From NCBI GenBank assembly GCA_965112155.1, contig OZ218101.1: a stretch of 64,000 nt of DNA, one strand, 5' to 3'. The notes under the pieces were generated by a model. That model had not been told where the DNA came from. It was given only the letters and a program-made list of their open reading frames with translations, and ran no database searches. Both the position numbers and the translations under genes were made by a program. The DNA is from Podarcis liolepis. Its lineage: Eukaryota. Below are positions 11,362-45,374 of this stretch, piece by piece (position 1 is the first letter of the stretch; the number at the start of each line of letters is the position of its first letter).

Positions 11362-13287
11362 CAGTACCGTGTCTCTGTAAACCACCTAGAAGCTATTGTA
11401 GATAAGTGGTATATAAGCAGCTTAAATACATAAATAAAATTACTAAATATACATCTCTTCTAAAACACATAAGTCAGGTTCTAGGGTCAAACATACAAGC
11501 TTTCTTTTTGCAGCAACAAATATATGAGGCTGCAAAGAGAAGTGTGCAGGTGCTAACCTTGGGCCTTCAGGGGACCAGCTTTGGGCAAATATGGTGAGGA
11601 TGTCCCCAAAGTTCTGAAAGGCCTTCAAGGTTACTCTGTCAACCAAACCTATCTCACAGTCTTCCTGCAAATAATGGGAGAAGAAGAATTAAAAAACCAT
11701 TTGCAGACTGAAACATGCTGCAGACATTCTTAATGAAAATGCTTCAGAATGGGCCTGAGCGTTACAATGCCACTCTCAGGAAAGATTATAAAATGGTGAA
11801 CACTGTTTCAAGCACTATAGCATTATATGTCATCAGGTGCATATCAGCAGGGATATTACTGTAATAAGCCCTTAATTTCCGTAAGTCCTTGGAGTGAATT
11901 GCCTTTCAGGAAAGGATCAAGTGAAGCCTATGATACTAGTAAGAATTGTGCATTAAAAAAAATGGAAAAAGGACATTGAAAATAATAATATACTTTACAG
12001 AGTTGAAGACCAAACCACCAAGGTAGCAAATCTATTTGCTTACAGAACGGTGTTTCGGTAGGCTTCTGCAATAGGGTATCACTTTTCTTAGCAAAAGCAT
12101 CTGGTGGGAATGAAGCAATACCCAGATCACATAAAAACAGATTAGTTACCCAGCAGCGAAGCAAACTTTCCTGATGCCTGGGGTGCACCCGGGGCTCGGG
12201 GAGGGTGGTGTGAGAAGGATGCCATGTGCCCTTCAATCCCAGCCTTGGCCATGAGGGGTTGGGATTGTAGGGTGCATGGCTGCTGTGTTCTTTTCACACC
12301 ACCCTTCCCAAGCCACTAGAGATTTGCGAGTGGTTTGCCCATTTTATGTGGAAGGTTGCAACCAGGAAGGGGACTTTTGGAGATCCATTGCAGATTTGAA
12401 ATTTCCTTCTGAGCCCTTTGGATCCATGTCACTATATACATGGTTTCCTGTAAAAGGTCACATTATAACCAGAAACAAAAATTAATGGAAATATGAGTTG
12501 GGCTTTCGTTCACTACCCATTATGAGAAGGACTGTTGTCCATACAATCAGTATGGAACGGATGAATCTCTGCTCATTTCACATTTGCCTCTATTTGTGGA
12601 GTCTTGCATTTGGGATTTTCACTGTGGAGGCCATCTTTGCTGGTTTCATAACTTCTGCATTAGGAATAAGAGCAGAAAGGAGCAAAGAGTGTTCATGATC
12701 ATGTAGAAATGTAGCATCATAATCAGGTTTGAACTTTTGTCGCTGAAACCCATAGTACACTTCTGGAGGAACACAGACATAACTGGACATAACAGCAGCA
12801 TTGAAACTCTTAAAACCAGAAAGTTACATGTGTTTAGGCCACAATCTCCCACCAATTTCTGCCTGTGTTGAGTATGCTGTAAATATATCAACCTGAATCT
12901 TACACAACTGAAGTGCTGGGTTGTGGTCATAATTATCAACAGAATAACAGGGCATGAAACTTGAATAAAGATAGCACTGCTTCTAATTATATATTGCTGT
13001 TTATCTATTTCAAGTATCCCTTGTGAAGTCTTGCTCTGCTAAGTAAATGACAAATGTTGCAGAAGCCATTTCTATTTGGTAAAAAAGGGTGGAAAGGCAA
13101 GTCTTACGTTGGTTAGGAATGAAGCATGGCAGCTGTCCAGGATAGGGCAGATATGAAGTGCCCCAAACAGAAAATGGGTAAGTAAGGGGAAGGACAAGAA
13201 GAAGATGAGGTTTAAACAAGATTAGAAGCAGGAGAACAAGGGAAGGGCTCTGTTTTGATTCATAAGAAAAATTCCATATTAAGACAA

Positions 13288-13335
13288 TGTTTGTTTGTTT
13301 GTTTGTTTGTTTGTTTGTTTGATTGATTGATTGAT
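13288..13335. repeat. (TTTG)n(ATTG)n microsatellite
   Basis: Directly visible. Confidence 0.95.
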
Positions 13336-13575
13336 TTGTATACTGCCAGTCACCCATAGATTCCAGGTCATTTTACAACATAAAAATACAAGATAAAAAC
13401 TGGGCTTGCACCCCAGAGAAGTCACTTTGCTGCTGTTAACACAGCAAAATCAACACAAGAGGCATCAGCTACTTGTCTCTGCAGCCACAGCGAGTTCTGT
13501 GATTCTCCAGCAATTTGACTTTCTGCGAGGTGCACTCCATTGTCTTTTGAGACAGACAGATGTCAACAACAACAA

Positions 13576-14409
13576 TGACCGCTCCCCGCTTAAAATAGGG
13601 GGCGCCCTTTGCGTGGACGCGTGCAGCCCCTAGATCTGGAGCGGCTCCAACAGCATAGGCTTGGCTTTGCCTTCCCTCAGGTGGGATACCTGGAGTTCTC
13701 CGCCTACCTCAGTCAGTTGTCCAATCCCACCTGGGGGAAGCGTTGCCAAGGAGACCAGGCCAGGTAGGGGAGGGATTACCTGCCCACACAATAGAGGGAG
13801 GATCTTACCTAGGAATCCTCACTTGGCTCAAGAGCTTCTCCCACCCTACCCACCCTCAGTTAATGTCTTATTTTGCAGGTTAACTTTTCTTCACAGGTAT
13901 GCGGGCGCTGCTACGTTAAGGTCGCTGTTAAAGGGCCGGAAAGGAATTTCCCTGCATTGGCAGGTTTCACCTTTCCCGTAGCAAAACGTCACAACTTTGG
14001 CGGTATCAGGCCTTGGGCGGAATCCTTTTGTCCATCTTCCTCTTGCGGCGGCGATACCAGGGTTCCCTGTTAAAGGGGTTTTCTGAAGGGAGGCTTTGGC
14101 CGTACACCGAAAGATCGTCATTGCTCTCTCCTGCGGCGGCGGCGTTACGGGGGCGGCCATCTCTGCTTGAACATATGTTCTCCAGAGCCGGCCCATCCCC
14201 CCACACACACACTGGATAACCCTGATGCTCCCTAGGTCCCCGGCTGGGGATCTGGGAGGGAGAACGCCCAATGCCTGAGCCAAGCTCTACCCACATTTGA
14301 AATTTAATAAAGTCGTGGCCAATTTAATCCCATAGCACGTTGTCTTGAGTCGTTATTCCACATGACGGGGAGACCGTGCAGGATCTGGGGACTCCGCCTG
14401 TCCACGCAA
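13576..14409 (+). mobile_element. CpG-rich, non-coding, highly structured LTR-like element; candidate DIRS/Ngaro (tyrosine-recombinase) terminal repeat or solo LTR
   Basis: Imperfect ~40-bp terminal inverted repeats beginning ttgcgtggac (13609-13618) / gtccacgcaa (14400-14409); TATA-like ttaaaata at 13590; AATAAA at 14306; many CpGs against a CpG-poor background; no TSD; no credible ORF. Family assignment is inference. Confidence 0.6.
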
Positions 14410-14585
14410 CTGCCTCTGACCATGGAAGCAGAGCATAGCCATCATGGATATCAGCCATCAATAGCCCTCTCCTCCATGAATTTTTGTAATCCTCATTTAA
14501 AGCCATCCAAGTTGGTGGTCATTGCTGGCTCCTGGGGGAGGAGTTTCATAGTTTGACTATGTGCTGCATGAAGTACTTTCTTTTC
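14410..14585 (-). mobile_element. CR1 LINE 3' end remnant
   Basis: Reverse complement reads aagtacttc..gcagcacatagtcaaactatgaaactc...accaacttggatggctttaaatgaggattacaaaaattcatggaggagagggctat, a typical reptilian CR1 ORF2 C-terminus and 3' UTR. Confidence 0.7.
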
Positions 14586-14596
14586 TTCTTTTGAAG

Positions 14597-15069
14597 TCCG
14601 CCGGGACCACATAACACCAGTTCTGAGAGATCTGCATTGGCTCCCAGTACGTTCTGAGCATAATTCAAAGTGTTGGTGCTGACCTTTAAAGCCCTAAATG
14701 GCCTCGGTCCAGTATACCTGAAGGAACATCTCCACCCCCATCGTCAGCCCGGACACTGAGATCCAGCGCTGAGGGCCTTCTGGCGGTTCCCTCATTGCGA
14801 GAAGTGAGGCTACAGGGAACCAGACAGAGGGCCTTCTCGGTAGTGGCGCCCACCCTGTGGAACACCCTTCCTCCAGATGTGAAGGAAATAAGTATCTATC
14901 CTATTTTTAAAAGACATCTGAAGGCAGCCCTGTTCAGGGAAGTTTTAATATTTAATGCTGTATTGTTTTTAATACTTGATTGGGAGCCTTCCAGAGTGGC
15001 TGGGGAAACTCAGCCAGATGGGCGGGGTATAAATAAATAAATTATTATATTATTATTATTATTATTATT
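14597..15069 (+). mobile_element. L2 LINE 3' end (ORF2 C-terminus, 3' UTR, ATT tail)
   Basis: Frameshifted DHITPVLRDLHWLPV / FKVLVLTFKALNGLGPVYLKE / RAFSVVAPTLWNTLP...FKRHLKAALFRE, diagnostic of L2 ORF2. Confidence 0.92.
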
Positions 15070-16217
15070 GACAAAAGGTAAGAGGAACTCTGTGTCATCA
15101 TGGTACTCTTGATCAGAGAACGTATGAGTTTACATTGGAGGGCTTCTGAATATTTGCACTGGTGTCCCTGTCATTTTAACATTCTCACACCAAGAACACA
15201 AATCACTACATTGTATGAAGTGTTTGTACAATGTAGAGACTTGTGCCTTCCAGCCAAAAGCAAATAGAACTCAGAGAGGAAACGTTAAATAATCAGGATC
15301 CCATGTTTCCTAGATCTTCATCTATTTATAACTGATGCAGCTCAACTGAAGTTAAAAAAATTCTCCACCCATGCTAGGTTTCAGCTATGTATTGATCAGA
15401 TGCTTGAGAAGGTTTAACCAGTTCTGCAAAATGACCTTGATGCAGGGTACAAGAAAGCTTTTCTTTTCTTTTACTTTTTCTCCAATCTATTTCCAAAACT
15501 AGGTCTTTAATACAAAATCGTCGTCTTCAAACAGCATTAGCTTCTTTAACTGTTCATGGCAGCAGATGGGTAGTGCTAGATCAATATATATATTGCTAGC
15601 AATGAGTTTAGAGAAGGTGAAACAGAAGAGCAGATGGTTATTTAAGGCCACAAACTAACTTTTAATAGAGAAAGTATTAAGTTCTTTACATGCACACCTT
15701 TTCTAAGGACAGCCAGGGATCCCCACAGCCCATCAAAATTCCTCACAATGGAAAAGCTGAGCTTGATCAAAGTCAAAAATCTGCAATGTGAATGCAAGGT
15801 ATTGGTGTATTTTTGTATGACTTGGGGATACTTGTTATGGCATTGAAGACAGCTGATCATAGAAAGCAGTGTGAGCCAGTGGTGTAGGTGGGGGGGGGCA
15901 CAGAGACAGTTGCCCTGGGCGCAAAATTGTTAGGAGTGCAAAATTTCAACACCTGGTGCTACCTCAATACAGCTGCATTTCTGGGCTCTGTTGTAAACAG
16001 CGTCTCCATGCAAAACAGGAAGTGACCTCTCCAAACAATGGGACTACTCTTCTTTTAGGCTGTTGAATACACATGCATACTCTGTCTGTTTCCCCCTCTC
16101 CCCACCTTCCCCTTCATGCAGCCCCGGGCACTGGCAACCCACACCATGCATTCTTCTGAACCAGAGGTGGGGAACCTCAGACCTAAGGGCCAAATGCAGC
16201 TTTCCACCCCTCTCTCT

Positions 16218-16856
16218 GGAGCCAGTGTGGTGTAGTGGTTAAGAGCAGTGGACTCGTAATCTGGTGAACCGGGTTCACTTCTCAGCTCCTCCACATGCAG
16301 CTGCTGGGTGACCTTGGACTAGTCACACTTCTCTGAAGTCTATCATCCTCAGCCACCCCACAGAGTGCTTGTTGTGGGGGACAAAGGGGAAGGAAATTGT
16401 TAGCCGCTTTGAGACTCCTTAAAAAGGTAAAGGGACCCCTGATCATTAGGTCCAGTCGTGACCGACTCTGGGGTTGCGGCGCACATCTCGCTTTACTGGC
16501 TGAGGGAGCCAGCATGTACAGCTGAGGGAGCCGGTGTACAGCTTCCAGGTCATGTGGCCAGCATGACTAAGCCGCTTCTGGCGAACCAGAGCAGCACACG
16601 GAAACACCGTTTACCTTCCCGCTGGAGCGATACCTATTTATCTACTTGCACTTTGAGGTGCTTTTGAACTGCTAGGTTGGCAGGAGCAGGGACCGAGCAA
16701 CCGGAGCTCACCCCGTCGCGGGAATTCAAACCTCCGACCTTCTGATCGGCAAGTCCTAGGCTCTGTGGTTTAATCCAGAGCGCCACCCGCATCCTCCTTA
16801 GGGTAGTGATAAAGCAGGATATCAGATCCAAACTCCTCCTCCTCCTCTTCTTCTTC
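16218..16856 (+). mobile_element. Squam3-like (MIR/Ther1-derived) SINE, split by a Sauria SINE
   Basis: Head ggagccagtgtggtgtagtggttaagagc, CORE-like gctgggtgaccttggactagtcac, 3' part resumes at 16801 gggtagtgataaagc with (CTC/CTT)n tail. Confidence 0.88.
16422..16794 (-). mobile_element. Full-length Sauria SINE nested in Squam3-like SINE
   Basis: Complete reverse-complement Sauria sequence; TSD ctcctta at 16415-16421 and 16794-16800. Confidence 0.93.
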
Positions 16857-18531: not shown

Positions 18532-18611
18532 CTGATTTATCTCCTTGCTATTTATCTCCTTGCCTTTTACCCTTCCAGTTCCGATGGGTGGGCAATGGCC
18601 CCCAAAGGTTA

Positions 18612-18975
18612 AAAAAGGTAAAGGACCCCTGACAGTTAAGTCCAGTCATGGACAACTCTGGAGTTGTGGCGCTCATCTCGCTTTACAGACCGAAGGAGCC
18701 GGTGTTTGTCTGCAGACAGTTTTTCCGGGTCATGTGGCCAGCATGACTAAGCCATTTCTGGCGAAACCAGAGCAGCGCACGGAAATGCTGTTCACCTTCT
18801 TTCCGGAGCGGTACCTATTTATCTACTTGCACTTTGATGTGTTTTTGAATTGCTGGGTGGGCAGGAGCCGGGACCGAGCAATGGGAGCTCACCCCGTCGC
18901 GGGGATTCGAACCGCCAACCTTCCGATCGGCAAGCCCTAGGCTCAGTGGTTTAGACCACAGCGCCACCTGCATCC
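18612..18975 (-). mobile_element. Full-length Sauria SINE
   Basis: Complete element; perfect 13-bp TSD cccccaaaggtta (18599-18611 / 18974-18986). Confidence 0.95.
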
Positions 18976-20290
18976 CCCAAAGGTTACTAGCCCTCAGATA
19001 CATTTGCTAACCTGCTCCATACGTATATTAGCTATTTTAGGCTGAAAGGGGAGGGAATCCTCCCTCCCTTTTCTTTTTTCTTTTTTAAAAAGGGTATTTT
19101 AAAAAACCTGATTGTTCAGAGGAAGTGTTTCTTTCCTTTCCTTTTTGCTAGGCAAATGACTGCATACAAACCTGGCATCACATCTCCGCTCTAAATACAG
19201 AAAAAGATTCCTTTGACACCTTAATGACGTCAAGATTTATTGAGGCTCAAGCTTTTGTTGAGCAGAGCCCATTTCAGCAGATGCAAGACTAACTTGGGCC
19301 AGCTGTAGGAACACTTCTTTCCCATACTTAAGCAAATGCACTGGCTGCTTGTCCATTTCTGGGTGAAACACAAAGTTTTTGTGTTAAAACGTTTGCAGCT
19401 CAGATGATCTCAGCGTACCTTTTCCCAAGTGAGTAAGCCTACTTCGTTACCAAGGCCATTATCAGAAGCCCTTCTCAGAGCAAAGTGGGTGGTGATTGGC
19501 CTTTTCAGTTCTGGTGTTCTCTATATGGATTTCCTTGCCTGCCACTTATTTTGATGTGTTTCCAAAACCAACTAAGACCTTTACTCAAGTCCCCTGTTTA
19601 GAACTTCTACTGAATTATAGGCAGAATAGAAACCATGTGCTGATTAAGAAAGGTCTGGTCATTTCTTCCTCTCCATTGGCACCAAACATCTGGTGCAGGG
19701 TTGTTGCAAATGTTAATATACCAGGTTTGTACCTTCTGTTTGATGTCCTTTCCTGTGGCTACTTTTGTAAGACTATTGCCTGTCACTATCTGTTATATTT
19801 TGACTGTCTAGTGCCAATGTTCACCTTCACACCCTTGCAGGAGTGGTTTAGCAGAACAATACAAAGCTCATTTGCACAGGGTTGGGGAAGCAGGGGGATT
19901 GGATAGCTCAGCGATGTTTCTCCACCAACCCTGCCGCCCTCCCACTGGCTGCCACCTGCAGAGAGACAATAGCATCACCGGCATGCAATTCCTCCTTCCT
20001 CCTGCTAAAGAGGTCACAAATTGCAGCTGGTGGAAAGCTTTAAAATGGGGCTTTCTGGGGGTGTGCAGAGGACAGGGCTGACCCACCCCAGAATCTATTA
20101 GATCCTGCCCATCCATGTCATCATATGATTGCATTGGGCCAATACAATCCCAGCTGCTATACTACAAACCACAGGACTGCTGCTGGCCCAGCTGCCCTTC
20201 ATTGCCCCACCATGCTGAGGGAGTTGGAGTTGGATTGCTACCTATGCTCCTTAAGACAACCCACCATTCTGCATTAGAATAACCTCTCTT

Positions 20291-20533
20291 CAGTGTGGTA
20301 TAGTGGTTAAGAGCAGTAGACTCGTAATCTGGGGAACCGGGTTCGCTTCCCCGCTCCTCCACATGCAGCTGCTGGGTGACCTTGGGCTAGTCACACTTCT
20401 CTGAAGTCTCTCAGCCCCACTCACCTCACAGAGTGTTTGTTGTGGGGGAGGAAGAGAAAGGAGAATGTTAGCCGCTTTGAGACTCCTTCGGGTAGTGATA
20501 AAGCGGGATATCAAATCCAAACTCTTCTTCTTC
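20291..20533 (+). mobile_element. Squam3-like SINE
   Basis: cagtgtggtatagtggttaagagc...gggtagtgataaagcgggatatcaaatccaaactcttcttcttc. Confidence 0.92.
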
Positions 20534-23010
20534 AACTCCCTATACAAAACCTTTATGGTAACTATTGTCGCTATTTGGATGTGTTCATATGAAAAGTCAA
20601 GCTTTTTGCCATTTCTGCAACAGCCACACAGCATTGCATAATGGTAAAACATGGTACTTGTATACAAATTTATGTAACCACAACAAGGCTAATTGGCCAA
20701 ACCGAAATAGGAAGGTTGAGAAGGGAAGGGGGGAACCCAGAGAGAAACATTCTAGCCCTCCAAAAGCTGTCTGTTGAATTTTGGGTCTGTGCAAACTATC
20801 CTCAGATGCTTGACATGCTGGGAAGGAATGCCTTTCCTTGCTGCTAACGTCCAACTTCATTTTGTTCTGTCTGTAGCCAGTGAGCTGGTCAAAATCCTAT
20901 GACTGAGTCTTTGTTCCACTTCCATCAAGAGGCTATGAAAATGCTTCTGTGATACAGCCCTTAGAATGGTCATTGTGCTGCTGTTTGCTACTCTGCATGG
21001 GACATTAAACCAATCATCTGTCCCATTTAAGATAATTCAGGAGACCACATCATTCTGAGAACAGTGGTGCTATTAACAGTCCGATGACATAATTGGGTCT
21101 TGGTTCAATATCTCCCCAAGAATAGGGAAATTGTTGCCCATTCAAGCATATTGCTGTTGCATTTAAAAATCTGCCTAATATACTGTCATCCATTTAAGAA
21201 CTATTCTTGACAGGAGAAAATGTAAAGTTGTCTCTCCTCTCCTGTATTTATAGAACTGGCATTCTGCAAAAGATCACTATTTATATCTTTAACCTTGCTT
21301 CCAGTAGCATAAGTATGCAAAAGTTGGCAGCTAGGAGCATTATTATTTTTTCTTGTGTTCTGTCATTATTTTCAAAAGGCAGCTTCTGAAGTAAATCAGA
21401 GGAATTATAAATTGAGCCTATGTTTTCACCTTAAATTCTAACTAGGGTGGGGGCTGGAGACTTCAACATCACTGTCACTTGTTATTTCCTGTAGGTGAAT
21501 TTCTTTACACTTTCTCTCTCTCTCTCTCTCTCTCTCTCTATTTCACAAAGCAAAAAAGTCACTATATCCTGGAAATCATTGTTTCAGAAATTTCTTGTAT
21601 TTATTGCAACTAATAAGCTTTAATATATAAATGAATGAATATATAAAGAAAACCAACCACATTTTCTATGCACGTTTTGAAAGGAGGAAGCCGATTTGAA
21701 AGTCTGGGCTCCTGAGTAACTATGCATAGGATTATACCTCACACCGCACAAATCAATCGTTTGGGGTCATTTTTGGTTTGACATGAAGATATGGGAATGT
21801 GACCTTCTTTGTTCTTAGGATATGGGGAAATGCTAATTGCTCAGGGAAAAAGTCTTTCCAAAAAAACTTTGTTAAAACTAAAACTAAGTCAATGCAAATG
21901 TGAAACAACACATTTCCTTTTTAAATTATTCTGTCTTCTATACCGAACTGCTTTACAAAATATCACATTTCAGTTGCCTGCAAGCCTATCTAGACACATG
22001 ATTTAGTTAAATTTGTTCATGGATTTTATATGTACTTTTAATGATGGCTTTATGCATATGACGACATTTTATGTATGTATATAATGACATTTTATGTAAT
22101 GTTATGGCTGGCCTCATACCCAAGATTGGCAACAAAGGACAACATGAGGCTAATTTTGTGCTAGCTTGCTAGCTTTTGTGCTTCTGTAATTAATAGACAG
22201 GCACTCTTGTGTATCTACTTTCCTGTATGCTGATAAAGTATCATCTCCCACCTTTAAATGTCCACAAAATTATATTAGACATCTAGGGGAAGAGACACCC
22301 CTTAACTTCCTTCTGGTACTTGAGCAGACTTTGGCAGGGAAGTCTGAGGAAAAAAGCTCTGGAAGCGAATTCAGGTTTCTAATTTAAGATAATTATTAAA
22401 TGGGTCAAGGTAAAGTAGTGAGAAATATCAGGTTGCATAAAAAGAACATTGACAGTAATTTTATAACTAACCACACATACGGTAGTTACTAGTTTTAAGC
22501 AAGTTCAGCACTTAAAATAAGAAAGGAAAGAGCATCTTTAATGTGCATTGTTACCTGGGACTTCTCTCGAGGGTGAAGACAGCCTGCAGCAATCTTCAGG
22601 GTAAGTGGAGACAAAGGCATACTCAACTTCCCCCTCCCTGTTTTATGGTATTCCAGAAGGGCTATGTCTGTGAGAAAGGAAGTGGGTGAAGTTCAGGGCC
22701 ATGTCCTGAATACAGGGCAACAATCTTAACACCTTGTTTCACTCATGAAAATGAAGCAGCTTAAGAGGTATAAACTTAAGAAAATGTCTCCCTTTGCTCT
22801 TTTTTTTAATCCATTATCTTCCTATTGTTACGCTCATGTCTATATGGTTCATCTGCCTTGTTGTTATGGAAGGAAAGTGTCTTTGGCAGATATAATCATT
22901 TGAAGCAGGGGAGAGATTTGGAGCTTTTTCTCCTGTAACAGCTTTACCAGCTCAGCTTAAAGGGATGGACTTGATCTTTTAAAGCTCTAAATGGCCTAGG
23001 ACCAGCATAT

Positions 23011-24285: not shown

Positions 24286-24615
24286 GGGACGCGGGTGGGG
24301 CTGTGAGTTAAACCACAGAGCCTAGGCCTTGCCAGTCAGAAGGTCGGTGGTTCAAATCCCCATGACGGGGTGAACTCCCATTGCTTGGTCCCTGCTCCTG
24401 CCCACCTAGCAGTTCAAAAGCACATCAAAGTGCAAGTAGATAAATAGGTACCACACCAGTGGGAAGGTAAATGGTGTTTCCGTGCGCTGCTCTGGTTCGC
24501 CAGAAGCGGCTTAGTCAAGCTGTACACCGGCTCCCTCGGCCAATTAAGGGAGATGAGCACTGCAACCCCAGAGTCGGCCACGACTGGACCTAATGGTCAG
24601 GGGTCCCTTTACCTT
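24286..24615 (+). mobile_element. Sauria SINE
   Basis: gggacgcgggtggg head to ggtccctttacctt tail; 13-bp TSD tattctgaaaatg (24273-24285 / 24616-24628). Confidence 0.95.
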
Positions 24616-26086
24616 TATTCTGAAAATGCAACAAGTTAGATGCTGTTCTGAGCAAAGGAGCTAAAATAAATTTAACATGAAAAGCAATAGGAACTTCAGG
24701 GATCAGATTGGAACTGAGCAAGTATTTGAGAAAAATTCTAGAAAGAATGCAACTAGGAGAATTTCTTTCCTGGACTCGAAGGTAGCAAAAGTCTATCATC
24801 TTACTATGATTAGAAGTATTGTGAGTGATATAAATCTGATTATTCATGGTAACACAATGGTAACACAACAGTTTATTCAACTTTCTAGATTTCAAATTTC
24901 AAAGTTTGGATCTGAAACCCATTAAGTTACGCTTTGTCAAAGGAACCAATCAATTTCAAAGTTTGGATCTGAAACCATACATCAACCAATCACACTGATG
25001 ACACTTGGGGTTTATAAAATATTGTCATGTTTCACATAACGTATTTCTACAATTTACATGAATGAAATGCATATGAAAAGAAAATGCTTTGCAAGATTGA
25101 AATATAGAACTTTCACCAGTGGTTTATAACTTTCATCCATGTTTTATAACACTGGATTCGTAATTTGGCTACCCAGTTTCAAATTATAACACAATCAGTT
25201 CAGCCATCACTAATTCTGCTTTCAATCTTGCTTGTGGGCTGTTGTCTACAGACCACAGTTTAAAAGTCACTGCTTTACACTTAATAATTCCATTCTGCTT
25301 TCAATCTTGCTTGCTCAGTTTGGTTTTTTAAAAAAAAACAAAATTGGCTAATTTTCCACTTGAAAAATCCTTCTATTACTGATCCCAATATGCAATCATT
25401 TCAAATTGGAGAAAGCTTAAAAACCAGTCACGAGTAATAGAAATCTGATTATTCATGGTAACATTTACAGCAGTTTATTAAACTTTCTTGATATGTTGGT
25501 ATTACCCTCCTGCAGTTTTTGTTTAGTGAGTTTTCAATTTTATTTGCATGGTGAAAGCAGCCTAGGGATAACAGTAGCTGGTAGTTTCGCAATAGTTAGT
25601 TCTTCTGGTTATATTCTGCTCTCTGTGAGCCCCACAAACTTAAACTATACAAAATAATTTGAAGCATTTCAGGACCATGAACAGATGCCAGCAGGAATAT
25701 TGTAATGTGTGTGGTGCCATGTGAACTTTTCATATTTGGGGGGCTAACTAGTCCTCTCAGGCTCTCCACCTTTCCAGCAGAATAGAACACCTTAATGGAG
25801 CAGTCATGTGGGCTAGAGCCTTTGCACACTTATTTCTGTTATTTCTCACTGGGTCTATTGTCTGTGTTGGCTAGGCGGCTCCGTAGAGTGTGGAATGCTG
25901 AGAGTCATAAAGCCAGAGCCTCAGGTGAATACAGGCTTGAGTTTGGTGTGTTCTTAGCCAACGTGCTCAGTTTCTGTTGGGGCCCTCTGTAGCTTGTGCT
26001 ACTGGCCCTTCTGATCTAGCTAGCTCCTAAGAGGTTGTGTCAGTCCTAGATGATGTTTGCAGTAGGGGTCGTGGTACCAACTACTG

Positions 26087-26200: not shown

Positions 26201-26613
26201 CATGAACCATAAAATACGAATTCTAATATGCTTTTTTTTCCCAAGCACAACTACTTCGCAAAATTCAGGAAAGTGCATAATCGGATTGTCCAAGAACTGC
26301 CAATTATTTTTTTTGCTTTAAAATACAGAGTGAATTAAATTCTCCTTCTTCCCTAGCAGTGTATTTAAAATTTCTAACAACTGACTGTCATTATTTTGGA
26401 TCCTTGAGTTCCGGACACATTCTAAAACCAGTAGAAAGAAATCACAAATGGAGATGATGACTTCATTTGCTTCTTATGTGGCATTCTGAGCCTGAGCACT
26501 AATTACCAATGGCCTTACAAAACCACAAGTGCCCCCTGGACTGCTGATGTGGCTATAGAATAATAAAGTAATGCAATTAAATAAATTTTTGCAAAGCATT
26601 ACATTAGCATTAA

Positions 26614-26969
26614 GGGACACGGGTGGCACTGTGGGTTAAACCACAGAGCCTAGGACTTGCCGATCAGAAGGTCGGCGGTTCGAATCCCCGCGACGGGGTG
26701 AGCTCCCGTTGCTTGGTCCCTGCTCCTGCCAACCTAGCAGTTCGAAAGCACGTTGAAGGGCAAGTAGATAAATAGGTACCGCTCCGGCAGGAAGGTAAAC
26801 GGCATTTCCGTGCGCTGCTCTGGTTCACCAGAAGCGGCTTAGTCATGCTGGCCACATGACCCGGAAGCTGTATGCCGGCTCCCTTGGCCAATAAAGCGAG
26901 ATGAGCGCCGCAACCCCAGAGTCGGTCACGACTGGACCTAATGGTCAGGGGTCCCTTTACCTTTACCTA
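26614..26969 (+). mobile_element. Full-length young Sauria SINE
   Basis: Intact B-box-like ggttcgaatccc, CpGs retained, (ACCTTT)n-like tail; 12-bp TSD acattagcatta (26601-26612 / 26970-26981). Confidence 0.96.
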
Positions 26970-28062
26970 ACATTAGCATTATATGGCTTAAAGAAGCATA
27001 TTAAACACCACATTTTGAAGTAAGTGAAGTTAAAGCACATTACCATCTGTAGAGTGAGCCTCCATAAGACTATACCTATCTAGAATTACCTAATTGTACC
27101 ACTGAAATTGGAAAAAAAACATAAACATTATATTAGTAGGTTCAAAACAGAAAATAGCATTTTCTTATAAATCTGCTACTATACTCCTTAGAAGTAAATG
27201 GCACAAAAATACTTTCCAAATTACAAATTATAGATGGATTTTAATTAGGGCAGCTTTAGTTGAATAGTATGCAGACAGTTTATGCCTTACTTGATTAAAT
27301 TTAAATAAATTTACATGCTTCAAAAACAGTTGAGGTGCTTACGTGAAGATCTTTGAAGACAATTTCTCTTGTGTATAATTTAAGTAAGTAATTTAAAGCT
27401 ACCACTTATTGGTAAAAGAGAATCCATTTTAAACATGTTTAAATATATAATTTGAGAATGTGGGGTATTGCCATTATAGCAACACATTATCATTGCTTCA
27501 ATAATGAATGCACTGAACATCTGATGGTACTGTGAAATATTCATATTTGAAAGAAGGCACAGGCCCTGAGCACTGTCTGTTTCAAATGTCTGTTGTTTAA
27601 AAGAAAGGGGCATGATTTTACCATGACAGAATGTCTGTGTGCTAGCTTTGCATAGTCTGGAAGGAAATGTTATCTTGATGTTTCATTACTCTGGTGCATG
27701 AAGGTGGGAGCTAACACATAAGTCCTTGTCCTGCGTTATAGTAGTCTTTGTTCAAAAGATCCAAGTGGCAATGATTTTTTTTATTGTTGTCTCTTCTGCC
27801 ATTAAGCAGGGAGCAAATTTGAATATATGTTTTAAATGAAGGTGCCTTGGAGCTATTTTCAGCTCGTCAGAGGTGAAGAAGGATCTATTTGAGGTGGCAT
27901 GAGTCAAATCAAGGTTTCCTGAAACACTTTGTGGAGACGATGATCCAAACATTTTAAAAAAATGCTGCAGAAAAAGGTCTGCTGTAAACAGAAAGTATGT
28001 CTCTAAGCAGTGTTTTTTCCAGAAAAAGAAGTGCAGGAACTCCCACCTGTTTTGGATGGACA

Positions 28063-28289: not shown

Positions 28290-28513
28290 TATCCCACTTT
28301 ATCACTACCCGAAGGAGTCTCAAAGCGGCTAACATTCTCCTTTCCCTTCCTCCCCCACAACAAACACTCTGTGGGATGAGTGGGGCTGAGAGACTTCAGA
28401 GAAGTGTGACTAGCCCAAGGTCACCCAGCAGCTGCATGTGGAGGAGCGGAGACGCAAACCCAGTTCCCCAGATTACGAGTCTATCGCTCTTAACCACTAC
28501 ACCACACTGGCTC
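28290..28513 (-). mobile_element. Squam3-like SINE (tail lost in gap)
   Basis: Reverse complement of the 20291-20533 element, ending gctcttaaccactacaccacactggctc. Confidence 0.92.
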
Positions 28514-29567
28514 TCAGTGGGAGCACCAAAGGGGGCAACAGCAGTTGCTTTTGGCACCGTCATTGTCACCTCCATTGCGCATCTACAAGCACCATGCCAC
28601 CAGCCTTGCAGCCCCAAGAAAGGGATGAAATGCTAAAGAGGAACTCACCACAGAGGTGCCGGAACTCAGTTCCAGTGAGTTCCAGCTGAAAAAGCCCAAT
28701 GTACATCAACATGTACTTTTGTGGATGAACACGTAAACAAGTGATCTCCTGAAATTACACTATCAACAAAATAGGGGGTGGAGATCCTATTCCTGAGTAC
28801 ATCATCCTATTCTTGAACTCGTGATTTAAAAATGGAGCTGCAGTTTCCTTGAATGAGCAAAACTAATTTAGATTGATTTGCATTACTTAACATTCATTTA
28901 AAATCTCCTAATGTTTTCTGTTAATAAATTTAGCAATTAAGTCCACTATTGATTTTTAACGATGACAACACAAATGCAGTTTAATTACCATAATCTGGGT
29001 GCTTGAGATGAAATTAGATCATTTTAGCAATGTGCCAACTTATTAAAATATAAAATTATTATTCTAATAGCAAACAAAATAATGTGGAAGAATGCCAAAA
29101 GAGCCGGGTTAGGAAAGCTAACCCTCCTGGCAATGCAACTCTGATCAACATTGAAGACCACACATAGAACTGGACAAAAAAAGTAAGAGAAAGTGGTGAA
29201 AGGCTGAGAGGACAGAAAAAAATGTACCTTGAATGAATTCCTAGAGCATTTGCTGCACCTTTCTATGGCCGCAACTTCGAAGAAATGCTTGAATATAGCA
29301 GTTATATGGCTTCATTTTTACATAGATACATACATATCTAATGCATACATACATACAGAATTTTATTTGTATGCTGACTTTTAATCGTTAAAACCTTGCT
29401 TAAGGTGCCTTTTACAACATGTAAAAATACATAATTACAAACATAACAAAAGTAGCCATAAACAATAATTAAAAAGCACACAACCAAGTTGAAACAATTT
29501 CCATATAAATCTTAATAACATCTAAAATAAAGATACGTGTGTGTGTGTCAAAAACAGCAACAACAGT

Positions 29568-29880
29568 CCAGTGTGGTGTAGTGGTTAAGAGTGGTGGACT
29601 TTTAATCTGGTGAACTGGGTTCGCTTCCCCGCTCCTCCATATGCAGCTGCTGGGTGACCTTAGGCCAGTCACACTTCTTTGAAGTCTCTCAGCCACACTC
29701 ACCTCACAGAGTGTTTGTTGTGGGGGAGGAAGGGAAAGGAGATTGTTTGCCACTTTGAGACTCCTCAAGGTAGTGATAAAGCGGGATATCAAATCCAAAC
29801 TACTACTACTACTACTACTACTCTTCTTCTTCTTCTTCTTCTTCTTCTTCTTCTTCTTCTTCTTCTTCTTCTTCTTCTTC
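29568..29880 (+). mobile_element. Squam3-like SINE with compound (TAC)n(TTC)n tail
   Basis: Same body as 20291 copy; microsatellite tail 29801-29880. Confidence 0.92.
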
Positions 29881-32308: not shown

Positions 32309-32365
32309 GATTTTCAGTAGTTAATTATTTTACAGGGTCTGTCTCTCTCTGTGTGTATGTGTGTA

Positions 32366-32591
32366 CAGGGGTACCTTGGATTACAAACACCGCAGGTTAC
32401 AGACTCCGCTAACCTGGAAGTAGTACCTCAGGTTAAGAACTTTACCTCAGGATGAGAACAGAAATCACACGCCGGCGGTGCGGCGACAGTGGGAGGCCCC
32501 ATTAGCTAAAGTGGTGCCTCAGGTTAAGAACGGTTTCAGGTTAAGAACGGACCTCCGGAACAAATTAAGTACATAACCAGAGGTACCACTG
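32366..32591 (+). mobile_element. Tc1/mariner-pogo MITE, copy 2
   Basis: caggggtaccttggatta...taaccagaggtaccactg; TA TSD. Confidence 0.9.
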
Positions 32592-34059
32592 TATTGGACA
32601 GAGGTGCCAGTCCACTCAGCTCTCTTGGACCTTGCACTAGCTGACCCTGGAGTGATGGAAATGGTTACTGAAATGTTTCAGTGTGGCACACCTCTTTCTG
32701 CCTGCTAATCATACCAACAAGAGTGGTGCTGGCTCTATGCTGGCTCTATGCTCTATGGCTCTATGCTTGCTAGCGTAAGCTCCCAAAATGTGGTGCTCCA
32801 AAGGTGGGGAGGAGTGGAGCTGGCTTGGGTAGAAGTGGGTGTGCTGCATCAATGGAGTGAATGCGGGGGGGAAATGAAAGTCTCTTTTGCAGGAGAAGAA
32901 AACTAGAGAAATCTGAGGACAGAGACAGATGACAGTAAAATATGGACCATGCCATTCCCTTGCTCTTAGTATTAAATGAAATGCTTAGACACCTTGATAG
33001 AAATCTTTGTTAAATCAGTTTTCCTTTAGTCAATGGACTTTTTGTTCTCTATTACATCTTATAACACAGTTATATACAGTTGCAATTGATGATTGATAGC
33101 TTCTATAGATAATTCAATAATGAAGTTTCCCCGGAATGTGCATGGAGGGAAGGGGAAAAATGGAATTTACTTGTGCATTCCCATCCATGATATTGCTTCC
33201 CTCCTGGTCTATATTCAATTCTGACTACTTAAAAACAAATAATAAATCCATTTCCAAACCCTTTTCCTGCCTTAAAATTGTGCAAAGAAAAGATGACTAG
33301 AGATGCAATGAACATGCAACAGTTTTGATTTCAGACTTTTAAAAATGAACTGTTTAGTTATATTTTACAGGTTGTAAAGCAAAGAACAAGATGGGAAAGA
33401 ACCATATTTCAATTTACCCATCCTTTCATGCTTATATATACACACTGAGTAAGAGAAAACAGAGTGGACACAGGAACAATTGTTGCAAGCATCTGTGTCC
33501 TTCAGTCTGTTCTAAATACCTCCTCTTCATCTTTATTTATTTTATTTTATTCATTCATTCATTCAAGTATTTATATCTCTGCTTTCAAGCGAAAAGCCTT
33601 CACAAACCACTTTGCAATATAGCTATAGTAGTAGAAAGCTCAAATAAGCCTCAAACTTACTTAAATGTTCTCACGCTGTTGAAATTATTTTTGGCATATA
33701 AATGGATAGACCTCTCAGATACTTTTGCTTCATAGCCATAAAAAAAGGGGTTCCGTCTCACCATGGTTATGTGAGTGGAGCTGATTTTCAAGCATGAGCT
33801 TCTGACTTTCAGGAGTGAGACTGGAGGTTACAGGGTTTGGATTATCCAACTGGTGTAATCTTGCCTAGGGAGAAAGGCTTCATATATGTGAAGAAATAAA
33901 ATGGTTAATTTTCCCTCTTACATTTTCACCTGCATACAGATATAGCTTTGTGCAGCTATATGTTAACCAACTGACACCATTTTCATCTATATTTTAGACT
34001 TCCGAATAAGGAGTGGAGCAGTTTGGGAGAGACTGAACAGCTCTTAGGAAGAATTAAGA

Positions 34060-44438: not shown

Positions 44439-44886
44439 GTACATATGCATATTTCTCATCTGTACATATGTTTGCTTTCCATATTGTGCATGAAGGATTG
44501 CTTCATATGTTTGATGGGCCACAAGTTGTGTGGTGTGTGCAGGACTGGTATTCATTTAAATTGGCCAAAGGGTTTTAAATTGCATTTCTACATGAAAACT
44601 CTAACCCTTTTCTATATTTATATAGCTCACACTCTGTGTTGGGAAAAATAATGATACACTGAATTCATCCAAGACTCGTTACAAATACAAAAGCTGTTCT
44701 GTGGTGAAAGTGACAGGAGTACTGATCTACCTACCATTGAAAATACAGGTGTCCCATCAAAATCTTTTCTCACTCCTAATTTTCTCTTCCATCATTTTCT
44801 CTGTAATTTCATCACACTCTGAAGATAATGTGTTTACTCACTCATTTTTTCCCCCAGTGAGAAAGATAGCATTGAAATTATCAATA

Positions 44887-45119
44887 CAGTGGTACCTCGA
44901 GTTACAGATGCTTCAGGTTACATACGCTTCAGGTTACAGACTCCACTAACCCAGAAATATTGCTTTGGGTTAAGAACTTTGCTTCAGGATGAGAACAGAA
45001 ATCATGCTTTGGCATCGCGGCGGCAGCAGGAGGCCCCATTAGCTAAAGTGGTTAAGAACAGTTTCAGGTTAAGAACGGACCTCCGGAACGAATTAAGTAC
45101 TTAACCCGAGGTACCACTG
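44887..45119 (+). mobile_element. Tc1/mariner-pogo MITE, copy 3
   Basis: cagtggtacctcgagtta...taacccgaggtaccactg; TA TSD. Confidence 0.92.
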
Positions 45120-45374
45120 TAAATAGTTCTTAGAGTTGACAATACTTAATGACACATGGGAAGCCCAGAAGGATCAGATCAAATATGGAGCTGGCCAACC
45201 AGATGCCTATGGGAAACCTGCAATCAGAACACAAAGGCATTTTTTTTAGAGTGGTGACCAGAACTGGATGGCCATGCCATTTTCCCAACTATGGAATTTG
45301 CTGTTTTCACAAATGGCATACCCTGGGTTGACATCATCATAGAGCTACCCACCATAACTTGAAAATGTATTTCC

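Follow-up and report, generated by a model that had tools for sequence, protein, structure and literature searches.

An abundant 834-nt non-coding repeat of lacertid lizards, probably a solo A-B repeat of a Ngaro-type retrotransposon

Isolated A-B units of split-repeat tyrosine-recombinase (YR) retroelements have been described before, both for Ngaro (PMC8547959) and for SIRE (PMC6681497), and in the excerpts available the published lengths of A and B together are 388 nt (Xenopus DIRS-53) and 392-675 nt (PMC6681497). A tyrosine recombinase that integrates an element leaves a trinucleotide flanking it on either side, with a single copy at the junction of the circle (PMC7192593 and PMC3266345, in the sections cited). 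How the ends of such elements are rebuilt and recognized by the recombinase has, according to the same partial sources, hardly been tested even for DIRS-1 (PMC7192593), and the independent movement of A-B units such as SIRE is stated there as open (PMC6681497). ENE elements are described in the cited sections as clamping the poly(A) tail and raising the mobility of the Evade retrotransposon (PMC12501189, PMC7583470), and Table S10 of the HELIANO survey gives only HLE1 for Lacerta agilis and Vipera ursinii and no HLE for two turtles (PMC11417382).

The locus analysed here lies in a 64-kb window (the whole stretch of DNA under analysis, 64,000 nt). It is one copy of an abundant lacertid repeat with sharp ends and without an ORF, and at 834 nt it is longer than the A plus B units above (Table 1). 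Our best explanation, to which we give a probability of about 0.6, is that a Ngaro-type tyrosine-recombinase retrotransposon left the element behind as a solo A-B split repeat. A first-pass annotation of the sequence had put it forward as an under-described system; given that solo A-B repeats are already in print (PMC8547959, PMC6681497, in the parts cited), the element is not a new system, and the remaining interest lies in the folded joint between its ends, in a U-rich domain and in whether the A-B unit moves alone.

Table 1. Features of the element and its surroundings, in window positions (p, pair probability; z, folding relative to shuffles).
Feature	Position	Strand	Remarks
Whole element	13576..14409	+	834 nt, without coding ORF; depth step; joint 14406->13573 going back 834; no Pfam match; probable solo A-B split repeat
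Left CAA core	13573..13575	+	End of the flanking repeat's (CAA)n tail; 3 letters fit either side of the joint
Terminal GC-rich hairpin, TTAAAA (13590-13595) in loop	13580..13604	+	Weak in the window copy (z -0.7); TATA-like on +, or HINE 3' palindrome on -
Left arm of asymmetric inverted repeat	13609..13648	+	33 nt inside the left end; p 0.94-0.95
Long hairpin with 17-bp stem	13660..13750	+	z -4.1 (over 13653-13757) and -3.6; p 0.98
Intron-like signals	13679..13896	+	Donor-like AG/GT at 13679-82 and 13762-65; pyrimidine tracts ending in CAG at 13878 and 13896
Predicted three-way junction	13909..13983	+	U-rich internal loop (ENE-like) between helices 13938-44/13970-76 and 13951-55/13960-64; p 0.81-1.0; z -2.0 to -2.8
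Inner domain closed by a 13-of-14-bp stem (14006-19/14265-78)	14006..14278	+	p 0.68 full-length, 0.27 transcript-sized; absent from the first-pass annotation
GC-rich hairpin	14228..14258	+	z -3.0 and -3.3
AATAAA (14306-11) and GT-rich tract (14339-57)	14306..14357	+	Likely poly(A) site; bin 14295-14332 among the deepest in X1
Right arm of inverted repeat	14369..14409	+	Flush with the right end; predicted local hairpin with the left arm across the tail-to-head joint
Right CAA core	14407..14409	+	Seen in the sequence; 3 letters fit either side of the joint
Left flank, 3' end, with (CAA)n tail, of a different interspersed repeat	13527..13572	+	Own depth; loose ends at 13527 and 13567-69
Right flank, piece of a different repeat	14410..14480	.	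Usual neighbouring part absent; X4 loose ends before 14409/14410 (135 and 93 contigs)
Interspersed family 1, copies	16421-16805, 18611-18986, 24286-24619, 26614-26965
Interspersed family 2, copies	16210-16420, 20291-20537, 28290-28523, 29568-29816
Interspersed family 3, copies	513-762, 32364-32610, 44879-45121, 50290-50543

Copies, relatives and neighbouring repeats

At least half of the element's sampled words were present in 14 of the 24 listed sequencing runs (six organisms, seven studies; one possibly the source sample), and reads or contigs were examined against the element in four of the 24, namely X1 and X4 (contigs) and X21 and X23 (RNA). In X1, 9328 contigs matched the stretch, 7016 of them at 95% identity or more, and the summed depth, which is not the same as copy number, was 6,888-41,821 over 13573-14370, while the left and right flanks had 41-1,533 and 674-740, respectively. 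We infer that the copies number hundreds to thousands. This depth step, the thousands of matching contigs and the joint of tail to head described below bear out the earlier view of a multicopy non-coding mobile element with defined ends. The depth dropped 20-fold, to 924, in the last bin (14371-14408), where a variant tail follows 14370, and subfamilies probably differ in the 3' arm; a search for compensatory changes in the 5' arm would best start from these variants. Internal deletions were carried by single contigs of X4 (13636-14382, 13651-13998, 13823-14381 and 13837-14287, depth 8-86), each of which would correspond to about one or two copies, and one of them leaves little beyond the inverted repeats. 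Short tandem duplications were seen at the acceptor-like CAG region 13871-13898 (six go-back joints in X1 and X4 together).

No further copy of the element was found inside the window by blastn or motif search, and a six-frame Pfam search of 12000-16000 returned zero families at E<=0.01. The window copy departs from the majority letters at many sites and 4 of the 17 differences checked were CpG decay, which indicates that the copy is young yet was once methylated. The CpG richness claimed from the sequence was confirmed (observed/expected ratio of 0.62 in the element versus 0.21 in the window), while the accompanying suggestion that the element might be unmethylated is unlikely in view of this decay.

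A profile search of 1.84 billion proteins gave four matches, of which two were true relatives and two (P0003 and P0004) were dropped as repeat artefacts. One relative, P0001, is an unnamed translation from an 880-nt contig and contains a tandem repeat of about 234 nt, covering approximately 14030-14255. The other, P0002, is XP_060130858.1, a predicted FAS isoform of Zootoca vivipara in which 59 residues are read from 14040-13867 on the minus strand at 75% identity, and the presence of a relative in a Zootoca protein makes the family lacertid. According to the gene model only, this antisense piece sits after the FAS transmembrane region, and the tail that follows it is, as we read it, compatible in a shifted frame with the start of the FAS death domain; the element may thereby serve FAS as a frame-shifting cassette exon. 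No host or element proteins fused to plus-strand frames were found in the protein searches, which is weak evidence. Motif pattern scans elsewhere gave 0, 0 and 1 loci in viral collections, 4 in metagenomes and 0 and 82 in GTDB; the viral locus was within a long ORF, the similarity of the metagenome loci was confined to the motif, and the 82 GTDB loci were judged to be chance on prokaryote titles alone. In the literature on Ngaro and Helentron elements in lizards no description of a lacertid 834-nt family was found, nor any article devoted to Ngaro elements of lizards; Repbase, Dfam and the original Ngaro papers were outside this search and may list the family already.

The element sits in a pile of repeats (13345-13572 and 14410-15070) with two repeat ends on the left and multicopy fragments on the right. 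We take the left flank to be an RTE-like repeat and the right flank to be CR1-like, and the right-hand pile is presumably a CR1-like fragment followed by an L2-like end. The missing neighbour of the right-flank fragment hints at a local deletion. The window also contains three further families of short interspersed repeats, each represented by about four copies (76-95% identity), as well as a 120-nt imperfect palindrome at 12193-12314 (MITE-like) and a 19-bp hairpin at 15197-15245. A Pfam hint of EPS8 at 29472-29879 was dropped as low-complexity.

The ends of the element and their tail-to-head joint

Three genomic contigs of X1 with a depth of 48.9 joined position 14406 to 13573 on the same strand with the three letters CAA shared, compared with a depth of 4-12 for the other listed single X1 contigs; in the record of this joint the sequence between tail and head is marked as not known. 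The joint was also present in two RNA reads of X23 and was absent from X4, which has more data than X1, and from X21. CAA flanks both ends of the window copy (one insertion examined) and occurs once at the joint. A 4-6-bp target site duplication (TSD) was found at none of the five boundaries tried, the longest duplication being 3 bp, so the earlier claim that the element lacks a TSD holds for duplications of 4-6 bp and has to be amended for the CAA that is repeated at both ends. Judged from the letters at the ends and at the joint, this is the pattern published for tyrosine-recombinase retroelements, and the (CAA)n tail of the left-hand repeat is a natural target. A T^T target is satisfied as well, the boundary 13575-14408 reading A^A on the plus strand (one site); the third shared base would exceed what T^T requires, which we weigh at about 4:1 in favour of a Ngaro origin. 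Termini of the form TG...CA are present at 13576-14408, and the joint unit of 834 extends one base beyond them, this extra base belonging to the perfect inverted repeat.

The terminal inverted repeat recognized in the first-pass annotation is present (13609-13636/14382-14409); 28 nt are 79% complementary and the outer 10 bp are perfect. At the joint the two arms come to lie 33 nt apart and the model is one long hairpin with the small TTAAAA hairpin at its tip. Modelled as plus-strand RNA the joint reached -70.2 kcal/mol (z -6.1, 0 of 300 shuffles as good), as minus-strand RNA -65.7 (z -4.5), and as DNA a z of -4.4 on either strand. Since a transcript that stops near AATAAA would be without the 3' arm, the inverted repeat probably serves as a local hairpin at the joint. 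It would then act in the full-length RNA, in single-stranded cDNA or in a circle, either in end rebuilding or in presenting CAA to the recombinase. The majority letters at 13596-7 restore two pairs of the hairpin 13580-13604, and the T after TTAAAA is private to the window copy, the C found in most copies perfecting the hairpin around TTAAAA. TTAAA occurs in or at the loop of three small GC-rich hairpins (13590, 13927 and 14070), each weak alone; the repeated hairpins are possibly a protein-binding signal.

Transcription signals, folding and a U-rich junction

The TATA-like box and the AATAAA reported earlier are both there on the plus strand: TTAAAA at 13590, which lies 15 nt from the left end and is the only TTAAAA/TATAAA box, and AATAAA at 14306, about 100 nt from the right end. 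The window holds two acceptor-like sites 18 nt apart (13878 and 13896) and a variant with a pyrimidine tract was seen at the X1 loose end 13863. On the plus strand the element resembles a promoter end joined directly to a terminator end, with a transcript predicted to start near 13620 and to end near 14330, and such a transcript would lack the 3' arm and could therefore not close end to end. Two RNA runs labelled with the species of the best-matching run (one bulk and one single-cell, 12% and 6% read) gave 346 and 140 reads over the element and the flanking repeats, with a depth within the element of at most 23 per direction in X23 and below 5 in X21, in both mate directions. No start or end pile-ups, no spliced joint and no discrete or abundant RNA were seen in these two runs (tissue unspecified), which speaks against the discrete RNA of about 800 nt that had been proposed as a check. 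The reads fit read-through of many copies, and germline expression is possible.

The whole element folded better than its shuffles, as had been anticipated (z -3.65 on the plus and -3.79 on the minus strand; 0 of 20 shuffles as good on either). Of 13 further stretches of equal length in the window, one (26400-27233) reached z -3.3. In a strand-neutral count two stems scored 12 or more, against a shuffle mean of 0.25 and a maximum of 2 in 60 shuffles, and the counts at lower thresholds equalled those of shuffles; a small number of helices accounts for most of the fold signal. Twelve segments of 150 nt were folded on the plus strand and none fell below z -2.1, and G-U pairs were only weakly biased by strand (8 to 4 among the six best stems and 61 to 41 when all 58 are counted). 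Among sub-domains, which were chosen after looking, 13920-13990 (z -2.8) and 14225-14262 (z -3.0) stood out, and 14040-14230 (z -0.2) and 13758-13821 (z -0.8) had no fold support. An Rfam search found no family in the element at E<=5 and two chance miRNA matches outside it, and the CTGANGA hammerhead core is absent on the plus strand.

The individual stems of the first-pass annotation fared unequally. Its 17-bp stem (13671-13687/13724-13740, one G-U) is present with a pair probability of 0.98, the outer cttggc/gccaag reaching 0.54. The short hairpin gaggat/atcctc (0.86) and the ggtcccc hairpin (1.0) were recovered, while caggta/tacctg, ttctccc/gggagaa, cagggtt/aaccctg, ggtatc/gatacc and ccgta/tacgg all remained below 0.1 in the full-length ensemble. 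The long-range pairing cttggctca/tgagccaag was improbable in the full-length fold (0.05) and probable in a transcript-sized one (0.72). An RNA branched from end to end is thus not borne out, given that most inner stems are at chance level and that the transcript would lack the 3' arm.

The predicted three-way junction was missed by the first reading and is new here. Its long arm has a U-rich loop between GC-closed helices with pair probabilities of 0.99-1.0. Within 13918-13977 all 20 of 20 residues were kept in P0001 compared with 17 of 26 beside it (Fisher's test, p = 0.003; the boundary was set after looking), and 18 of 20 compared with 18 of 26 in P0002 (p = 0.09). The loop U positions are forced in both relatives where the code allows, and all pairs of the loop-closing helices are allowed by both, except one in P0002; one outer-helix pair is broken in P0001, and shifting the register by 3 nt would restore it. 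The letters read back from the two proteins are thus compatible with a conserved structure. The predicted loop resembles an ENE yet is short for one.

Origin of the element and comparison with known systems

A full element of the form A1-ORFs-B1-A2-B2 would account for these features, with A as promoter (TTAAAA hairpin loop and intron-like leader) and B as poly(A) site. The same-strand joint seen in genomic contigs would be the internal B1-A2 joint, templating the ends that the RNA is missing, and at this joint the arms are predicted either to fold into the long hairpin or to act as inverted recombinase sites beside the CAA crossover. The CAA on both sides of the window copy, which has no 4-6-bp TSD, would have arisen when circular DNA recombined CAA-to-CAA with the (CAA)n tail. 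Recombination between A1 and A2, or the recombinase acting at the internal joint, would then have removed the genes and left A-B, and the U-rich loop within 13938-13976 is predicted to bind the poly(A) tail and to stabilise the element RNA. The link to tyrosine-recombinase elements of the Ngaro type, already suspected in the first reading, is the best reading by the tail-to-head joint and the CAA core, and a same-strand joint is also what tandem Helitrons would give. The poly(A) region resembles, to our mind, the ends of vertebrate Ngaro elements, which adds to the weight we give to this origin. A Ngaro partner would encode gag, RT/RH and YR, and in amphibians SGNH as well; no gag, RT, YR or SGNH match lay beside the element within 12000-16000, the protein searches yielded two non-coding relatives and no coding partner, and the A/B boundary was not located among the loose ends listed. 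The smaller A plus B lengths cited above and the absence of the joint from X4 also count against this origin. An unlikely extension is that the A-B unit is an independent mobile mini-element and not debris: a partner recombinase would excise an 834-bp circle bounded by the internal joint and the element's right end, or RNA of the form A-B-A-B would be copied in trans, and the folded joint would reinsert at CAA.

The ends fit the anatomy of HINEs nearly as closely in the sections cited (PMC5148889, PMC4067079), and a non-autonomous Helentron/Helitron2 (HINE-like) on the minus strand, a possibility absent from the first reading, is a tentative alternative of lower probability that deserves to be taken seriously. 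It would have inserted at T^T by rolling circle, the joint being a tandem or a circle junction. Read on the minus strand, the inverted repeat is at the 5' end (0-1 nt from it) and its partner is 33 nt from the 3' end ahead of the hairpin 13580-13604, as in the layout published by PMC5148889, PMC4067079 and PMC11417382, where the second repeat stands tens of bp from the 3' end and precedes a palindrome of 5-10 bp; the T^T target is satisfied and the minus-strand target is T-rich, internal tandem repeats occur in HINE copies (PMC4067079, as excerpted) as in P0001, internal deletions are seen in X4, introns would be retained by a DNA transposon, and HLE2 elements in reversed form are described (PMC11417382, in the cited part). 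However, the perfect repeat is 10 bp compared with the 12-15 bp described (PMC4067079, same excerpt), with 28 bp at 79% in this decayed copy, there is no terminal T run, the shared end motif is 3 nt and not 2, and the portion of HELIANO Table S10 cited has no HLE2 row for the four reptile genomes (PMC11417382).

The remaining alternatives are all improbable to us. An ordinary solo LTR of ERV or Gypsy origin, which would have lost its TSD through recombination of two LTRs and whose mismatched flanks would be explained by the same event, agrees with the TG/CA termini, with a poly(A) signal followed by about 100 nt and with flanks from different repeats; it is quite unlikely in view of the missing 4-6-bp TSD at the five boundaries, of a unit exceeding TG...CA by one base of the perfect inverted repeat and of an only TTAAAA/TATAAA box 15 nt from the end. 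Retrozymes and other ribozyme-bearing elements are defined by a hammerhead or other self-cleaving ribozyme. A free-standing structured-RNA parasite of that kind or viroid-like, in which an 834-nt RNA is closed end to end and circularises, is very unlikely: it would explain the whole-fold z of -3.65, the terminal pairing (p 0.95) and the two RNA reads across the joint, but both strands fold alike, neither an Rfam match at E<=5 nor, on the plus strand, CTGANGA was found, RNA depth was low on both mate directions without pile-ups in the two runs, and the joint is also in DNA contigs. Least probable of all is a deletion derivative of a DIRS1-like element with inverted repeats and a 33-nt extension. 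NTT-type ends and extensions of 26-34 nt are known for vertebrate DIRS1-like elements (PMC3266345, in the section cited), but the arms are only 79% complementary and the joint is same-strand and not inverted. The DIRS1-like layout is further disfavoured because no internal complementary region was found (best scores of 20 and 23 compared with shuffle means of 20; 153 and 48 of 300 shuffles were as good).

Under the preferred Ngaro origin, this lizard family, being young and abundant and having a strongly folded joint as well as a conserved U-rich domain, would allow both end rebuilding with its recognition by the recombinase and the independent movement of A-B units to be tested from public assemblies. 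Were the unit independently mobile, no cis-signals of Ngaro replication in vertebrates would have been mapped before the joint hairpin and the ENE-like poly(A) clamp, and the family has enough copies for tests of covariation and for population studies. A Helentron origin would close a gap in the HELIANO reptile survey as far as the cited table goes (PMC11417382). Either way this is a result of transposon annotation and not a new RNA class.

Among known systems, and as far as the cited parts of the sources describe them, HINE/DINE-1 elements (PMC4067079, PMC5148889, PMC11417382) share asymmetric inverted repeats, a near-end hairpin, T^T insertion, tandem repeats and joined ends with the element, which differs in a perfect repeat of only 10 bp, in the lack of terminal T runs and in being GC- and CpG-rich with Pol II signals. 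The ENEs of KSHV PAN RNA and Evade (PMC7583470, PMC12501189) resemble the predicted U-rich loop between GC-closed helices, in the 3' region of a retroelement, whereas the element has only three U per side compared with the five triples of PAN and its loop is part of a predicted three-way junction. SIRE, which is A2B2 of VIPER in Trypanosoma cruzi (PMC6681497), is likewise short, repeated and non-coding, an A-B unit from a YR retroelement with split repeats, but is about 430 nt long and belongs to a kinetoplastid and to another superfamily. The nearest tetrapod split-repeat element that we found in print, likened here by its description, is the Ngaro-like DIRS-53_XT of Xenopus (bioRxiv 10.1101/2021.08.05.455354), with an A of 236 and a B of 152 nt. 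The solo AB repeats of the Cafeteria burkhardae Ngaro (PMC8547959) are isolated, gene-less and GC-rich A-B units for which a B1-A2 tail-to-head joint is expected, as for the element; the latter is found in a vertebrate, is known without a full-length partner, would judging from depth belong to a much larger family, and has the predicted folded joint and U-rich domain in addition.
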